From the sequence record PQ659294.1: a DNA stretch of 45,053 bases; one strand, written 5' to 3'. Positions 2,529 to 39,161 of this stretch are shown one piece after another. The notes below the pieces were generated by a model. The model was not told the origin of the DNA, did not search any database, and saw only the letters and a list, made by a program, of their open reading frames with translations. Source of the DNA: Escherichia phage vB_ecoS_OzMSK. Position numbers and translations under genes: made by a program. The stretch's first letter is position 1. Each line of letters opens with the position of its first letter.

Positions 2529-2754
2529 TTCTAAATGTTGATTTTGCAAGCTCCAGAGCTTGTAATATTTTGGATTCCGACGCGGCATGAAGTTGATTGC
2601 TGTAGTAAACGAACGCGGAATCCTCACAGTTAAATAACCGAAGACTGGCGTGCATATGCACGTAAAAGAAAATGGCGGAAGAGTTTTTATCAGATCAATG
2701 TCTGGTGAAACAATGGTAGCATCCTCAAAAATATAAGTACAAGGCGAATAAGAA

Positions 2755-4226: not shown

Positions 4227-4250
4227 AGCCCTCGCTTGAGGGCTTTTTTT
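4227..4250 (+). terminator. rho-independent terminator (AGCCCTCGCTTGAGGGCT + T7)
   Basis: GC hairpin followed by a T-run. Confidence 0.7.
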
Positions 4251-13094: not shown

Positions 13095-13751
13095 ATGGCT
13101 CATCTCAGCAATGGCACGCAGGTCTTCGTAGAAGGCTCTCGCGGTGACACAATTGATGTAACTGCAATTTCTAACGCAGCTACCCCTGTTTTAACTGTAT
13201 CTGACGCCTCTGGCTTGGTTGTTGGTGATTACCTGCTTTTCACCTCATCGGCCTCTACACTTCTGGCTGACAAGCAAGTACGAATTACTGCAATTTCTGG
13301 CACTTCGGTAACAGTTGAAGGTATTGATACCTCCAACACCACTAAGTTCCCTGCTGGCTTAACTGGTGAAGTTGTTAAGATTACTTCATGGTTCGAAGTC
13401 CCGTGTGTTCAGGACGTATCTACTGACGGCGGCGAACAGCAGTTTGTTAACTTCCAGTGCCTTTCTGATGACCGCGAACAGCAGATTCCGACTTATAAAT
13501 CTGCGGTAACAAACACCTTCACCTTTGCTCACGAGTACACCAACCAGGTCTATCCGGTTCTGCGTAACTACGATGAGTCTGGCCAGGTTGTCGCGATTCG
13601 TCTGTTCGTACCTCGCGCTCAGGAAATGCGTTTGCAGTCCGGCACTATCACTTTCAACGACACCCCTACCATTGGTGTTAACGAGATCGAAACGGTATCC
13701 ATCGCAGTATCAATTCGTGGTCGCCTGTCCTCTGTAGCAGCTGAAGTTTAA
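13095..13751 (+). CDS. major tail protein
   Basis: 218-aa Thr/Ser/Val-rich ORF followed by a strong terminator; precedes chaperone pair and tape measure. Confidence 0.65.
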   Translation: MAHLSNGTQVFVEGSRGDTIDVTAISNAATPVLTVSDASGLVVGDYLLFTSSASTLLADKQVRITAISGTSVTVEGIDTSNTTKFPAGLTGEVVKITSWFEVPCVQDVSTDGGEQQFVNFQCLSDDREQQIPTYKSAVTNTFTFAHEYTNQVYPVLRNYDESGQVVAIRLFVPRAQEMRLQSGTITFNDTPTIGVNEIETVSIAVSIRGRLSSVAAEV

Positions 13752-13757
13752 AACACA

Positions 13758-13779
13758 AACCCTCTTCGGAGGGTTTTTT
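13758..13779 (+). terminator. rho-independent terminator (AAACCCTCTTCGGAGGGTTTTTT)
   Basis: GC hairpin with TTCG loop and T-run. Confidence 0.7.
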
Positions 13780-13784
13780 ATTGC

Positions 13785-13827
13785 ATAGCACTTTTGCTAA
13801 AGCACTTATTCAGCTTTACTGTATAGT
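13785..13827 (+). promoter_or_regulatory. degenerate class-A cassette (ATAGCACTTTTGCTAAAG, then TATAGT) driving the moron
   Basis: Variant of the inverted-repeat motif plus -10-like TATAGT and a leader resembling other cassettes. Confidence 0.4.
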
Positions 13828-13860
13828 TATCTCATCTAAACGAAATGAGAGATTAAAGAA

Positions 13861-14109
13861 ATGAATAACGTTAAAAACATCATCAAACTTGCTGCAGTTC
13901 TTGTTGCTTTTTATGCAGTAGTTCAGATTGTTAACCCAACTGGCGAGGCTGATGCCAATAGCAAGGCAAACAAATATACCGTTGAGTTCGCTAAAGCTGA
14001 GCGAGCATGCCAGGAGCTTGTGGGTAGTAAAGTTGACCAAATCATGAAATATGGCAAAGAGGTCTGCAAGGACTCAGCTGCTAAGATTGCAAAAGAAAAC
14101 ACTAAGTAA
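13861..14109 (+). CDS. small secreted or membrane-anchored protein (82 aa); moron candidate inside the tail module
   Basis: N-terminal hydrophobic segment IIKLAAVLVAFYAVVQIV; own promoter-like cassette and upstream terminator; AT-rich flank. Confidence 0.5.
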   Translation: MNNVKNIIKLAAVLVAFYAVVQIVNPTGEADANSKANKYTVEFAKAERACQELVGSKVDQIMKYGKEVCKDSAAKIAKENTK

Positions 14110-14148
14110 TAGAATACATACTCACAAACAATAAGAGGATTAACTAAG

Positions 14149-14463
14149 ATGGCTAAGTTCAAACTTTCACTGGCAGCACTCCCTGACTTCAAGCTTCCGG
14201 TAAAATTCAAGCTGGCTAACGACCAGGATGTAGAGGTTATCTTTACAGTCAAGCATAAGAAAACATCTGAGCTTCAGGAGCTTTTGCAGAAAGAAGACTT
14301 GAGTACTAAAGAATTGATTATGGCAATCGCCTCTGATTGGGATTTGGAAGAAGAATACAACGAGGATAACGTTAATGAGTTCTCCGACCTGTTCCCAGCG
14401 TCAACAGTTGCACTGACTACCGCTTACATGCAGGCACTGGCAGGCCAGCGGGTAAAAAACTAA
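14149..14463 (+). CDS. tail assembly chaperone (lambda G-like)
   Basis: 104-aa acidic ORF immediately upstream of tape measure; ends with slippery heptamer A_AAA_AAC then TAA. Confidence 0.65.
   Translation: MAKFKLSLAALPDFKLPVKFKLANDQDVEVIFTVKHKKTSELQELLQKEDLSTKELIMAIASDWDLEEEYNEDNVNEFSDLFPASTVALTTAYMQALAGQRVKN
14454..14460 (+). promoter_or_regulatory. candidate -1 programmed frameshift site (A_AAA_AAC)
   Basis: X_XXY_YYZ heptamer in the zero frame two codons before the G stop; the -1 frame is open into ORF 14472..14783. Confidence 0.55.
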
Positions 14464-14471
14464 AGAGGGCG

Positions 14472-14783
14472 GTGTATCTACAGTACCAGTCAGATCCAAC
14501 AGATGCCGAACTGGAAGCTATTGGGATGCGCCGCTCTGATTACGAAGACGAAGAGCCTGAAGTTTTGCACTTCGACGATAACATGATGAAGGCGTGGGAC
14601 ATTTATTGTTCAATGGCGACACAGTGGAGAGTCGGAGCCAACGGACCAACGGGCCTAGATTACAACGTGCTAAATTTCCTCTTTAGAGTGTATAATGTTT
14701 CTGAAGAGGAATTGGTACTCAGCGATTTACGCATCCTTGAAGCTAAGGCTCTCGAGATGATGGATAACCTGATAAAAAAATAA
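14472..14783 (+). CDS. tail assembly chaperone T-like extension (probably made as a G-T fusion by -1 frameshift)
   Basis: ORF in the -1 frame relative to G, no convincing independent RBS, followed by terminator and tape measure. Confidence 0.5.
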   Translation: MYLQYQSDPTDAELEAIGMRRSDYEDEEPEVLHFDDNMMKAWDIYCSMATQWRVGANGPTGLDYNVLNFLFRVYNVSEEELVLSDLRILEAKALEMMDNLIKK

Positions 14784-14806
14784 CCCGCTTCGGCGGGTTT
14801 TCTATT
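14782..14806 (+). terminator. terminator-like hairpin (AACCCGCTTCGGCGGGTT + TTCTATT)
   Basis: GC hairpin with TTCG loop; weak T-run. Confidence 0.45.
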
Positions 14807-28847: not shown

Positions 28848-31298
28848 TTAATAAATATTTACATCTGGAGAAATTCCAACGCAAGTCCAGCGCGAGAACT
28901 TGGCATCATAAACGAATGACATTCCAATTTGTCTCCCCTCAGATGGAGTTGTGAATGAGCCAACTCTAAACTTATTGCTAAATGAAACGGATGGACGCCG
29001 GCCGCCTGAAAGGTTGTAAATTATGAAGTCTATCCTCTGTGCATCTCTTGCGTTATCCTGAACATCAATAACTACAGGACTTGAATCAATTACAACGGTT
29101 GCAAGACTTGTTCTTAGTGGGTTAAATAGAATACTACCACCAGATAGCTGAACCCTTTTTTGAACGGGGTTAGAAGAATCCGTGTACAACCCTGTGTTTA
29201 TATTATACAAAGCCTCCCATGAATTCAGTTTTGAGTCATCAATCACTGTTGCATGCTGCCCAAATAGTATAGTCCCTTCTACATGGTTTCCTGAAGCTCC
29301 ATTATAAAAATCAAAACCAGAAGCTGATCCACCAACAAACCTATTAGCTCTAGCTCCGTTAACTTGAATTGATGGAGACTGAAAACCTGACTTCAGGCCA
29401 TTGAACAAGTTTCCTGTCGCCGTCTTCCTAAGAACGACGTCACCACCAGAGTTGACCTCAAGGTCGCAACCAATAACAGTGTTAGTTACTGCTGTTATGC
29501 CTAGGTCTGACTCATGACCGAAAGAAAACCCATACTTATTTCCCTCGCTGGTTCCACCAATAAATGTCGTATTACTGCAGAATGTAGCCTCAATTCCTGA
29601 TTCTGTTACATGCTCGCAAGTTGGGTTAATAAAAAGATCTGCAGATGTGCCGCGGAAGTTCACAGCGCCAGCCTCTGCGTCAATTAATATGCCGTACGTA
29701 GGCGTCGTTGTGAAGGTCTCAACGTTACCAGAGCACACAAAGTTATTATGCACGCATAGCTGAGTCCACCAGCAGTGTAAACCAGCCCTTCTAATGTTCG
29801 TAGCCATTAGGTTGTCAAAGCATGATGATATGACACCCCTTAATGAAAAGCCATCACTAGCATACCCATTCCCATCGACAATGATGTTGCTCATATATGA
29901 GTTGTATGCCCAATAATCTAGGTTTACATCCCTATGATCCATTTGGATGACGTAATCATGAGGTCCGCTAGTTAGTGAGATTCTTGCGCCTTTCTCACCG
30001 ATAATTGTTGCTGGCCTCAGAAAGTTTAATGGCTGAGATGTAAGATAATTACCTTTAGGAATATGTATAGCAATAGCGTTGTTTCTAGATGCCTCAACAG
30101 CGGCAAGCAATGCCTGAGTATCATCTGTTACACCATCACCAACAGCGCCAAAGTCCTTCTTAATATCGACATGAGTAAGTAAAGCGTTTACCTCTGGCTT
30201 TGAGTAAACATCAAGATTTGTTCTTGCTGCTGACTTATTTGCAACATCAGAGAAATTCAATGATTTTTGAAAAGTCTCATTTTTTGAATAAACATCAAGA
30301 TTTGTTCTTGCTTCTGACTTATTTGCAACATCAGAGAAATTCAATGATTTTTGAAAAGTCTCATTTTTTGAATAAACATCAAGTAAGTTTCTAGCCCTCG
30401 ATGCCGTAGCTCCACCTCCGGACTTGCCAGCCTCAACCATCACCATTTCCCTACCTGGTGCATAAACCCTGCTTCCGGGCGCTCCCACAAACTGAATGTA
30501 AATCTCCCTGCTATACTGGTTGCTTGTTGAAGATTGGCCTACAACTCGCAAGGAGTGCGTGGTTGTATTGCTTGACTTTGATATTACCTGAATGCATAAA
30601 GCAGCAATTGATGTTCCAAATGTTGAGATTATGTCATTTGGAGCATTTATCATTGATGAAACGTTAACCATATAAAGGCCACCGGATTTAAAAACAAATT
30701 CCTGCCAATCAAAATTGCTTATCAATGGCGTAGTGTCTGTCGCCAATCCATATCCGGCAAGAGTTACCAACGTTCCGGCATCCCCGGCGTTATTAATTGC
30801 TTTAATCGTCTGATCTCTTGCTGCAGTGGTCGTGTCTCTTGCACTAATAGCAGTAGCGGCGCTCTCTTCGGCAGCAATCTGGCTAGCAAGAGCCTCAGCA
30901 GCTCCAGTGGTGGATTGTTTTGCAAGCTGCTCGAAGAGAGGCCAGTCGAAAGTGTCTTGACCAATAAATTGCAACAATCCTTCGATTGATGTCTCCTTTG
31001 ACTGGTAGTAACGCAAAGTCTCTGCTACATCCTGAGCCAACCCCTGAACGGTAATTCCATCGTGCGCAAGAATTGCATAACCAGTTCCGGAAGGAACAGT
31101 TTCAGAGTTAGGGTTGTAAACATTAATCTGAGTATCGCTGATGATTTCAGAGATGGTATAAATCTTCAGGGGGCTGGTTTTAAAAATAATGGTTGCACCT
31201 ACGCGAATAAGTGTAAGCGGTGCTTTCCATGTTGTACCCACGCCAGTTACCTCGCCATTTGCGGCCAGCGACGCTGTTCCTAAGTCATAAATTGCCAT
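28848..31298 (-). CDS. lateral tail fibre / tailspike with right-handed beta-helix (pectate-lyase-like) domain
   Basis: 816 aa from ATG 31298 (GGAG RBS); motif DIKKDFGAVGDGVTDDTQAL typical of pectate-lyase-type tailspikes; internal 28-aa tandem repeats. Confidence 0.75.
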   Translation of the reverse strand: MAIYDLGTASLAANGEVTGVGTTWKAPLTLIRVGATIIFKTSPLKIYTISEIISDTQINVYNPNSETVPSGTGYAILAHDGITVQGLAQDVAETLRYYQSKETSIEGLLQFIGQDTFDWPLFEQLAKQSTTGAAEALASQIAAEESAATAISARDTTTAARDQTIKAINNAGDAGTLVTLAGYGLATDTTPLISNFDWQEFVFKSGGLYMVNVSSMINAPNDIISTFGTSIAALCIQVISKSSNTTTHSLRVVGQSSTSNQYSREIYIQFVGAPGSRVYAPGREMVMVEAGKSGGGATASRARNLLDVYSKNETFQKSLNFSDVANKSEARTNLDVYSKNETFQKSLNFSDVANKSAARTNLDVYSKPEVNALLTHVDIKKDFGAVGDGVTDDTQALLAAVEASRNNAIAIHIPKGNYLTSQPLNFLRPATIIGEKGARISLTSGPHDYVIQMDHRDVNLDYWAYNSYMSNIIVDGNGYASDGFSLRGVISSCFDNLMATNIRRAGLHCWWTQLCVHNNFVCSGNVETFTTTPTYGILIDAEAGAVNFRGTSADLFINPTCEHVTESGIEATFCSNTTFIGGTSEGNKYGFSFGHESDLGITAVTNTVIGCDLEVNSGGDVVLRKTATGNLFNGLKSGFQSPSIQVNGARANRFVGGSASGFDFYNGASGNHVEGTILFGQHATVIDDSKLNSWEALYNINTGLYTDSSNPVQKRVQLSGGSILFNPLRTSLATVVIDSSPVVIDVQDNARDAQRIDFIIYNLSGGRRPSVSFSNKFRVGSFTTPSEGRQIGMSFVYDAKFSRWTCVGISPDVNIY
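30199..30385. repeat. 84-bp direct tandem repeat (two copies plus a partial third) inside the tail fibre gene
   Basis: AAACATCAAG recurs at 30206, 30290 and 30374; copies differ at about one position; encodes ARTNLDVYSKNETFQKSLNFSDVANKSE twice. Confidence 0.85.
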
Positions 31299-32337: not shown

Positions 32338-32383
32338 ACTATACACAATGTATAGCGCCACTGTTTATCAATTCGTGCTATTT
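32338..32383 (-). promoter_or_regulatory. class-A promoter-like cassette upstream of primase
   Basis: Minus-strand AAATAGCACGAATTGATAAA then TATAGT; motif overlaps the stop of the upstream gene. Confidence 0.5.
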
Positions 32384-32860
32384 CCCTTGCTCTTTAGCTT
32401 TTCGCGCTGCCTCGTTAGCGGCCTTAATCTTGCGCCATGATCGACACTCTGTCTTGGTGGCTAATTCAGCCTCAGTAACAACACGCAGCATGTGACGCTT
32501 TTTGCAACGAAGAGTTAGCGGCTTCCCGTTACCGTCGAATTGCAAATCTGGTCGGCAGAATGTGGCGCGAAAACCTTCTCCATTTCGCTTGTAGTAGTTG
32601 TGCGACAGCTGGGCGCCACGTGCCGATATCATGCCGCGCTTAAACCATTGTTCTACAGCCTGTGGTGTTACCTTTAACTGCTTTGCGATATTCGCCTTTG
32701 TGCCGAAGAAATCAAGAACTATCTCCAGGCGTGCCCGTAACCCTGCTCTTACTTCATCCTTTAAAACGTAGTAACCTGAAGGTCGTTTACGTTGCTTTTT
32801 GTCTTCAGTGCGGATAGTTCCGTTGTTGCCGTTAATGGTTCTCTTGTCGACTGTATTCAT
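32378..32860 (-). CDS. putative DNA-binding protein (160 aa, basic, HTH-like segment)
   Basis: Highly basic; segment IAKQLKVTPQAVEQWFKRG resembles a helix-turn-helix. Confidence 0.4.
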   Translation of the reverse strand: MNTVDKRTINGNNGTIRTEDKKQRKRPSGYYVLKDEVRAGLRARLEIVLDFFGTKANIAKQLKVTPQAVEQWFKRGMISARGAQLSHNYYKRNGEGFRATFCRPDLQFDGNGKPLTLRCKKRHMLRVVTEAELATKTECRSWRKIKAANEAARKAKEQGK

Positions 32861-38607: not shown

Positions 38608-39161
38608 AAATGACTAAATTATTTATCCTTAATGGCCCAGCTGGAGTTGGCAAGGACACTATAGCGGATATGATGGTTGAGACTGGTGTCGCAAAAGAAA
38701 AGGTATCATTCAAGTCACCAATATTTAGAGTTGCAAAAGGAATGCTATCAAGCGATGAATTTGATGAATTCATCAAGAATTACGACAATAGAGACTATAA
38801 GGAATCACCTCATAGATTTCTTGTCGGTATGACAGTTCGTGAATTTATGATTTGGATTAGCGAGTCTGTAATGAAGCCAGCCTTTGGTGATGATGTTTTC
38901 GGTAAAAGGCTAGCGCAGTCACTTGGTGATGGCTGCTACATTTGCGCTGACGGTGGATTTGCTAGCGAGATTAAGCCACTGATCGACGCTGGTGTTGAGG
39001 TCACGTTAATCAGATTGCATAGGGCAGGGTACACATTTGATGGCGATAGTCGCTCATACATTCACGGGGTGTGCGCAAGAGAAATTGATGTTCGTGTTGT
39101 TGATTGTGATATTAATGGAACATCAGCATTGGTAAGGCACGTAATAAATAGCACAAATTGA
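38604..39161 (+). CDS. deoxynucleoside monophosphate kinase (P-loop kinase, putative)
   Basis: N-terminal P-loop ILNGPAGVGKDT; size and motif typical of phage dNMP kinases; C-terminus INSTN is encoded by a class-A motif copy. Confidence 0.55.
   Translation: MKMTKLFILNGPAGVGKDTIADMMVETGVAKEKVSFKSPIFRVAKGMLSSDEFDEFIKNYDNRDYKESPHRFLVGMTVREFMIWISESVMKPAFGDDVFGKRLAQSLGDGCYICADGGFASEIKPLIDAGVEVTLIRLHRAGYTFDGDSRSYIHGVCAREIDVRVVDCDINGTSALVRHVINSTN

Follow-up and report, generated by a model that had tools for sequence, protein, structure and literature searches.

What is a gene for a small, apparently exported protein doing between the tail genes of a virulent phage? The question is raised by Escherichia phage vB_ecoS_OzMSK (PQ659294.1). 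The stretch of DNA analysed here, referred to below as the window, comprises 45,053 bp; it is a complete genome and is 100% identical to that of Escherichia phage Msk (MW057918.1), a T1-like siphophage of the family Drexlerviridae, subfamily Braunvirinae. Msk is virulent (PMC8421802, PMC13035648), and OzMSK, a near-identical isolate, uses LptD as its receptor (PMC13035648). An open reading frame (ORF) of 82 amino acids (aa) occupies positions 13861-14109 (+ strand) and is annotated as a hypothetical protein in both published annotations, those of Msk and of OzMSK (PMC8421802, PMC13035648). A preceding interpretation of the bare letters (the sequence-only reading) had placed this ORF between a terminator-ended major tail gene and a tail chaperone gene, which we can confirm, as both the hairpin and the T-run were found, and had regarded it as a classic moron. 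We consider it probable, from its signal peptide layout and upstream cassette, that the ORF encodes an exported accessory protein with its own promoter. With more reserve, we favour the view that it forms a lineage-restricted, moron-like accessory gene cassette inserted between the major-tail terminator and the promoter of the chaperone genes.

A gene under purifying selection for a predicted exported protein

The 82-aa ORF is a real gene under purifying selection and not a chance frame, because it is a full-length member of phrog_22925 (residues 1-82 matching profile positions 1-82, E = 1.3e-55; family function unknown), because the pairwise ratio of nonsynonymous to synonymous substitutions (dN/dS) is 0.06-0.36 across allele pairs, including alleles of only ~50% identity and synonymous distances of up to ~2, and because 22 residues are invariant among 15 diverse homologues. 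A word-indexed search of 5.8 billion proteins returned close relatives only, Pfam has no family for the 82-aa protein, and Foldseek retrieved no viral model at E ≤ 0.001.

The N-terminus has the hallmarks of a Sec signal peptide cleaved by signal peptidase I, i.e., a charged n-region, a hydrophobic h-region and small residues at positions -3 and -1. The hydrophobic core, LAAVLVAFYAVVQIV, is 15 residues long and has a mean Kyte-Doolittle value of 2.55. In the homologues, position -1 is alanine and position -3 is occupied by A, T, V, S or G only, while the neighbouring residues vary; every homologue retains at least one usable A-x-A-type site. A lipobox (L-x-x-C) is not present, as there is no cysteine before residue 50. 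A signal peptide (SignalP 4.1) and a transmembrane helix (TMHMM) have been reported for the Msk protein MSK_000011 (PMC8421802), which we infer to be the 82-aa ORF from the gene order (10 being the tube protein and 14 the tape measure protein). The secreted or membrane protein proposed in the sequence-only reading, with its N-terminal hydrophobic segment and two cysteines, is therefore well founded.

Both cysteines of the predicted mature domain, C50 and C69, belong to the invariant residues, and the C-terminal K82 is conserved in 15 of 15 homologues as well. In the helix, Cys50 is located on the hydrophobic face. AlphaFold2 modelled the full-length precursor with low confidence (predicted local distance difference test score, pLDDT, 62.7). 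The mature part (52-aa construct) was modelled as one continuous helix over residues 2-51 (pLDDT 87.9).

A slot with exchangeable cargo in the tail module

The gene was found by tblastn in 81 phage records, all of them Braunvirinae-like, while the family of the flanking tail tube protein comprises 1140 records. The tube and chaperone genes are separated by only 70-100 nucleotides (nt), and the slot is empty, in the rogunaviruses UDF157lw and AHP42, in the hanrivervirus vojen and in Webervirus. Judging by the annotation of Rtp, the slot of T1 is empty as well: rtp33 corresponds to T1 gp41 and rtp35 to T1 gp40, with nothing between them. At the DNA level, the rogunaviruses are short by ~330 nt at this place, which is exactly the length of the cassette plus the ORF. 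As to the presence or absence of the gene in related phages, proposed earlier as a check, the slot is empty in the members of Rogunavirinae, Tempevirinae and Webervirus that were examined, and within the Braunvirinae its cargo is swapped.

Within the Braunvirinae the terminator, the upstream repeat, the -10 hexamer and the leader are constant, whereas the content of the slot varies. In Rtp, AugustePiccard and TR1 it holds a lipoprotein of the rtp34 family (126-128 aa), which begins at the same ATG and possesses a lipobox (LLAGC, or LTLTGC in TR1). The rtp34 gene lies at 901-1287 of the extracted Rtp stretch and the TR1 lipoprotein gene at 2272-2652 of the extracted TR1 stretch; both products are predicted to be of the outer-membrane type and have two further conserved cysteines and a C-terminal lysine, like the 82-aa protein. 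Homology between the two families was considered and rejected (hhalign probability 0.2%), the apparent shared motifs being due to chance. In Rao1 and CY1, an additional, unannotated 46-aa peptide with two predicted transmembrane segments (MILIGMLTAFFYYATGLTFWVSLGAAIGAYFVSALLALIVIALRNR, phrog_16572) is encoded between the repeat-type promoter and the homologue of the 82-aa gene, at 818-958 of the extracted Rao1 stretch and at 743-883 of the extracted CY1 stretch. All three types of cargo are thus predicted to be envelope-targeted. A scan of IMG/VR for the junction of terminator and repeat returned seven loci and no new cargo types.

Msk and ACG-M12 share 94% amino acid identity in the tube protein, 96% in the chaperone and 96% in the tape measure protein, but only 51-56% in the ORF. 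The sequence comparisons indicate that the exchange of alleles of the 82-aa gene has sharp borders and is not coupled to the flanking tail genes, to the receptor-binding protein or to the tape measure. The base composition deviates modestly: the G+C content is 41.0% for the ORF and 38.8% for the whole insert, compared with 46.4 ± 3.1% for the structural module, which places the ORF at the 4th percentile.

A proposed composite promoter with a repeat and without a -35 hexamer

The motif ATAGCACGAATTGCTAAA is present in 12 copies in the window at ≤3 mismatches (0.08 expected), on both strands and always upstream of non-structural genes. Copies of the repeat are located at 1853, 2899, 25080(-), 25835(-), 27462, 32381(-), 35369, 35579, 39148, 44154(-) and 44994(-), in addition to weaker ones. 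When they are aligned, the repeat is followed after 20-21 nt by a -10-like hexamer, then by a conserved leader (tacCNCATCGAAACGA) and finally by a ribosome-binding site (RBS) and the start codon. In seven Braunvirinae genomes, the hexamer stands exactly 20 nt past the repeat in 102 of 134 copies. This fixed spacing argues for a composite promoter whose upstream half is the family-wide 18-21-nt repeat. No -35 hexamer was found at the normal 17-bp distance in the repeat cassettes. Since a TTGCTA within the repeat lies 22 nt 5' of the -10 hexamer, the repeat spans about -50 to -33, where a site for an activator or for a re-targeted sigma factor contact would be expected.

A 21-nt direct repeat (DR) with the consensus aaATAGCACnnnTTGnTAAAA has been described for phage TLS and is said to occur in T1, Rtp and Rogue1 as well (PMC11447400). 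The TLS repeats are located ~76 nt before start codons, and their role was left open by the authors, who considered a stoperator, an enhancer site or an UP element (PMC11447400). The repeat before the 82-aa ORF shares with them the T-type consensus, the orientation with transcription and the distance to the start codon; it begins exactly 76 nt before the ATG. The shared leader CTCATCTAAACGA is retained in this copy, and transcription may start near position 13834.

The sequence-only reading had called this cassette degenerate. The cassette itself (repeat, -10 hexamer and leader) is real; its degeneracy is confined to the Msk record. In the Msk copy, TTTT replaces TTTTT at the centre of the repeat (13792-13795) and the leader reads CATCTAAACG in place of CATCGAAACG (G to T at 13837), and the match to the short pattern by itself was weak (one match vs 0.10 expected). 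Both differences are found in MW057918 only, and the canonical form is present in nine other listed contigs that code for the same protein sequence. The repeat is canonical in 14 of 14 relatives as well (phiA2-1, IME253, IME542, FP, EC3a, DTL, JulesPiccard, 12210I, ES, Rao1, CY1, ACG-M12, TR1, Rtp). We regard the degeneracy as a private mutation of Msk or possibly a homopolymer sequencing error; note that the GenBank entry MW057918 is flagged as unverified.

Repeat-type promoters head clusters of small ORFs, units for recombination, primase and helicase, and the unit from 39148 onwards that continues into the genes for holin, endolysin and spanin. As the same cassette precedes the unit running into the lysis genes, the label "early-type", which the sequence-only reading had given to the promoter, is an assumption. 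A literature search yielded no data on transcript timing for any Drexlerviridae, and a search with the repeat string ATAGCAC returned unrelated papers only.

A 160-aa helix-turn-helix (HTH) protein is encoded at 32381-32860 (-) of the window (phrog_2856, "transcriptional regulator", P22_Cro-like HTH; homologue of rtp52 and T1 gp23), with a copy of the repeat immediately downstream of its gene, ahead of the primase gene. This protein is the obvious candidate for a repeat binder. In the hanrivervirus vojen, where the slot is empty, a T-type repeat is present in reversed orientation (2535-2552 (-) of the extracted stretch), between the TGTACAAT promoter and the RBS of the chaperone gene; this could represent an operator-like use of the same element.

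The features of the slot and its borders are compiled in the table.

Table. Features of the tail-module slot and its borders in the window
Feature	Position	Strand	Basis or remark
Gene of the major tail (tube) protein, bordering the slot on the left	13095-13751	+	PF08813, E = 7.8e-67; phrog_584
Intrinsic terminator, AAACCCTC-TTCG-GAGGGTTT + T6, ends the major tail transcript	13757-13782	+	Terminator scan
Drexlerviridae direct repeat (DR), T-type, ATAGCAC-TTTT-GCTAAA	13785-13801	+	Matches the TLS consensus aaATAGCACnnnTTGnTAAAA, one T short
-10-like hexamer TATAGT	13822-13827	+	20 nt past the end of the DR, the modal distance
Conserved leader (initial transcribed sequence) CTCATCTAAACGAAA; in relatives CATCGAAACGA	13831-13845	+	Cassette alignment
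Shine-Dalgarno-like GAGAGA	13847-13852	+	8 nt 5' of the ATG; read from the sequence
Predicted signal peptide, residues 1-32	13861-13956	+	n-region K5/K9, h-region 10-24, N25-P26, A30-D-A32, then N33
Predicted mature domain, 50 aa + stop	13957-14109	+	Basic, isoelectric point 9.2, 5.5 kDa, all alpha-helical
C50	14008-14010	+	Invariant
C69	14065-14067	+	Invariant
Sigma-70-like promoter for the chaperone genes, TTGCAA-17-TAGAAT	14087-14115	+	Promoter scan; extends over the stop codon and codons 76-78 of the ORF
Genes of the tail assembly chaperones (G and G-T type), bordering the slot on the right	14149-14463 and 14472-14783	+	PF08748; PF08809 (DUF1799)

Proposed role of the exported protein

On the basis of these data the following scheme can be proposed. 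Host RNA polymerase would start at the DR-type composite promoter, which would lack a -35 element and consist of the DR (spanning about -50 to -33), TATAGT as the -10 element and the conserved leader behind it; this is the promoter class that would head the non-structural transcription units of the phage. The transcript started there would run on into the chaperone genes. Such read-through is expected, because the ORF has no terminator of its own and the chaperone promoter overlaps its 3' end. The product would be exported by Sec and probably cut after A32, which would yield a 5.5-kDa, basic, all-helical periplasmic protein; if the signal peptide were left uncut, the protein would stay anchored in the inner membrane. 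The two invariant cysteines would be oxidised in the periplasm, either as an intramolecular staple of a hairpin or as an inter-chain bond in a coiled-coil dimer; the single-helix model neither supports nor opposes the stapled hairpin.

The protein would not be a part of the virion and would act on the envelope of the infected cell. A literature search found no virion mass spectrometry or virion proteomics for Braunvirinae; the virion proteins of Msk were assigned by matching band sizes in SDS-PAGE only (PMC8421802). The envelope theme follows from the predicted envelope targeting of all three cargo types, and the 82-aa protein would be interchangeable in the slot with the unrelated lipoprotein rtp34. 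If T4 Spackle and Imm, T5 Llp, T1 Cor and HK97 gp15 are taken as analogues, the protein would most likely serve in superinfection exclusion or protect the envelope in another way. Exclusion specifically can be put forward only tentatively, being derived from these analogies.

The Spackle protein of phage T4, a virulent phage, is a small, helical, disulfide-bonded protein exported to the periplasm. Spackle and Imm are early superinfection-exclusion proteins, and the 82-aa protein resembles Spackle in being small, helical, (as predicted here) exported, and encoded by a virulent phage. However, Spackle has a compact multi-helix fold in contrast to one long modelled helix, there is no sequence similarity in the PDB search, and the target of Spackle is the tail lysozyme, whereas no counterpart can be identified for the 82-aa protein. 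T5 Llp and T1/phi80 Cor, receptor-blocking lipoproteins, are likewise envelope-targeted accessory gene products encoded in or beside tail genes and transcribed independently of the late operon; in contrast to them, the 82-aa ORF has no lipobox, and there is no co-variation of its allele with the receptor-binding protein. Msk-type phages already carry a Cor-like lipoprotein gene beside the receptor-binding gene. A further comparison is with the rtp34/TR1 lipoprotein, which shares with the 82-aa ORF the position, the terminator, the DR promoter, the leader and the ATG, as well as predicted export, two further conserved cysteines and the lysine end, but which is unrelated in sequence, has a lipobox and is longer (126-128 aa).

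Morons in the sense of Juhala and Hendrix include HK97 gp15 and others in the tail modules of lambdoid phages (PMC3594210). As in these cases, the 82-aa gene is an insertion between conserved tail genes, is absent in relatives, deviates in composition, has a (here predicted) promoter of its own and encodes a membrane-associated product. In contrast to them, Msk is virulent, so that there is no expression from a prophage, the gene lacks a terminator of its own, and the promoter is of the family-specific DR type rather than plain sigma-70. The classic moron of the sequence-only reading therefore has to be qualified: the insertion that relatives lack, the promoter-like cassette and the shift in G+C content hold, and the gene's own terminator is missing.

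Alternative explanations

Several results weigh against an accessory cassette with an envelope function. A HMMER profile search of 1.84 billion representatives retrieved the gene's own cluster only, with no homologue of known function; one further match was limited to the hydrophobic N-terminal part (profile positions 13-40) and is probably spurious. A profile search of the PDB sequences, with the T4 RI and Spackle entries included, gave no match at E up to 10, and AlphaFold2 returned no compact fold but one long helix. The terminator scan revealed no terminator between 14109 and 14149, the next one on the + strand being at 14782-14799, and thus the DR promoter may serve the tail genes too. 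In Rtp, no separate chaperone promoter is recognisable, and the gap between rtp34 and rtp35 is 18 nt. Practically all Braunvirinae genomes examined have a filled slot, and these phages may need some cargo. Finally, a comparison of seven genomes showed no gene with which the ORF allele co-varies, be it that of the receptor-binding protein, that of the tape measure or another.

This last finding limits the kind of exclusion that can be considered. The ORF alleles of ES and ACG-M12 are the most divergent, and yet the receptor-binding proteins of these phages share 93-96% identity with that of Msk; phiA2-1 has an identical ORF and an unrelated receptor-binding protein. As the allele varies independently of both the receptor-binding protein and the tape measure, a self-specific block of receptor or injection is not favoured. 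These comparisons make it unlikely that the protein masks the receptor used by its own phage; receptor masking is probably the task of the Cor-like lipoprotein. A host component or a competitor is more likely as the target.

Could the promoter and the ORF belong to tail expression after all? The DR promoter would then mainly restart transcription past the major-tail terminator for the chaperone, tape measure and distal tail genes, and the small ORF would encode a tail-assembly helper or a minor structural protein. The lack of a terminator before the chaperone genes would be in line with this, and in Rtp, with its 18-nt gap and no recognisable promoter for the chaperone gene, the chaperone transcripts may come mainly from the repeat-type promoter. 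The slot is also nearly always filled (81 ORF and four rtp34 records vs ~88 records with a major tail protein of ≥80% identity), and at the same place other subfamilies have a plain promoter (TGTTATAAT in AHP42, TGTACAAT in vojen). However, homologous tails are assembled by other Drexlerviridae without any gene here, unrelated proteins replace the cargo, all cargoes bear export signals while tail assembly is cytoplasmic, and the alleles co-vary with no tail gene. Furthermore, Msk-type genomes retain a separate sigma-70-like chaperone promoter. It is kept in divergent alleles as TTGTAA-17-TATAAT and TTGCAA-17-TACAAT, and the record of phage EC3a annotates a promoter at the position equivalent to 14087-14115. 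We therefore regard this explanation as unlikely and continue to prefer the accessory cassette.

If the protein does act in the periplasm, it might regulate the timing of lysis, like the T4 antiholin RI, or inhibit an envelope enzyme, like periplasmic lysozyme inhibitors, rather than block entry. A small, helical and predictedly exported protein of a virulent phage would suit such a role, and the same promoter class heads the unit running into the lysis genes at 39148+. Nevertheless, the gene is unlinked to the lysis cassette, it has no sequence similarity to solved structures, those of RI and Spackle included, and holins of the T1 type are pinholins without a large periplasmic domain, which makes a lysis regulator or enzyme inhibitor improbable.

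The mature domain of 50 aa, modelled as one continuous amphipathic helix and ending with lysine in all 15 homologues (rtp34 and the TR1 lipoprotein end with lysine, too), recalls an Lpp-like periplasmic coiled coil, in which host L,D-transpeptidases would cross-link the C-terminal lysine to peptidoglycan. During infection, such a protein would alter the attachment of the outer membrane to peptidoglycan or compete with it. This is very improbable, given that a C-terminal lysine is generally common, that the residue preceding it is unlike that in Lpp, and that no PDB profile match was obtained; a likeness to E. coli Lpp by sequence was tried and rejected, as BLASTP gave no alignment. A chance ORF or a decaying, functionless remnant, as its shortness and the missing Pfam family might suggest, is effectively refuted by the selection analysis (dN/dS well below 1 over the synonymous distances covered and the 22 residues invariant across alleles of only ~50% identity), by the RBS and the conserved promoter, and by the occurrence of the gene in 81 isolates and many metagenome contigs.

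Returning to the accessory cassette, a much bolder version of it can be formulated. The Braunvirinae slot could be a site reserved for exchanging proteins that act in the periplasm and form a new class (the 82-aa protein, rtp34 and the 46-aa peptide). They would protect the infected cell whatever its receptor type, e.g., by blocking the entry of competitor genomes or by disarming an envelope-based host defence, and would be driven by a family-specific, activator-dependent promoter with the DR in place of a -35 element. We consider this a long shot.

Significance

T1-like phages of the Rtp/Msk group are notorious contaminants of laboratories and fermentations as well as candidates for phage therapy. 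The arrangement described here, an accessory envelope gene inside a tail module, is familiar, and catalogues already list the gene family as hypothetical; of the findings made here, the promoter class is the more unusual one. The repeat class appears to control most non-structural genes throughout the family, and its lone copy inside the structural module could serve as a convenient natural reporter for when and how this class fires. If the proposed role is true, a small exported protein switched on independently of the tail genes would offer a new handle on envelope management or on the exclusion of competitors, and the 82-aa gene is short enough for direct testing from a plasmid. For now, it is one more lineage-specific accessory gene.

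Further observations on the structural module

The hairpin of the major-tail terminator (13757-13776) is rich in G and C, has a stem of 8 bp and a folding energy of -11.5 kcal/mol (z = -2.56), and the terminator is identical across all Braunvirinae examined. A search of the region for known RNAs gave nothing beyond a sub-threshold match to rsmX over the terminator. Near-identical GC-rich hairpin terminators of the CCCTCTTCGGAGGG type punctuate the structural module at 4229, 10059, 11104, 13760 and 14784. The RBS of the next gene follows close behind each of them, which suggests graded read-through and not separate late promoters.

The two chaperone ORFs, both of which are covered by phrog_17368 (213 aa), are followed by a gene for a 992-aa tape measure protein. 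They show the classic G/G-T arrangement, with a slippery A AAA AAC at 14454-14460 just 5' of the first ORF's stop codon; the -1 frame holds the second ORF.

Elsewhere in the window, an 84-bp tandem duplication (30199-30366; copies 98% identical) is located within the gene for an 816-aa putative lateral tail fibre or tailspike protein at 28848-31298 (-). This duplication fits the variable internal repeat that has been noted for OzMSK (PMC13035648).

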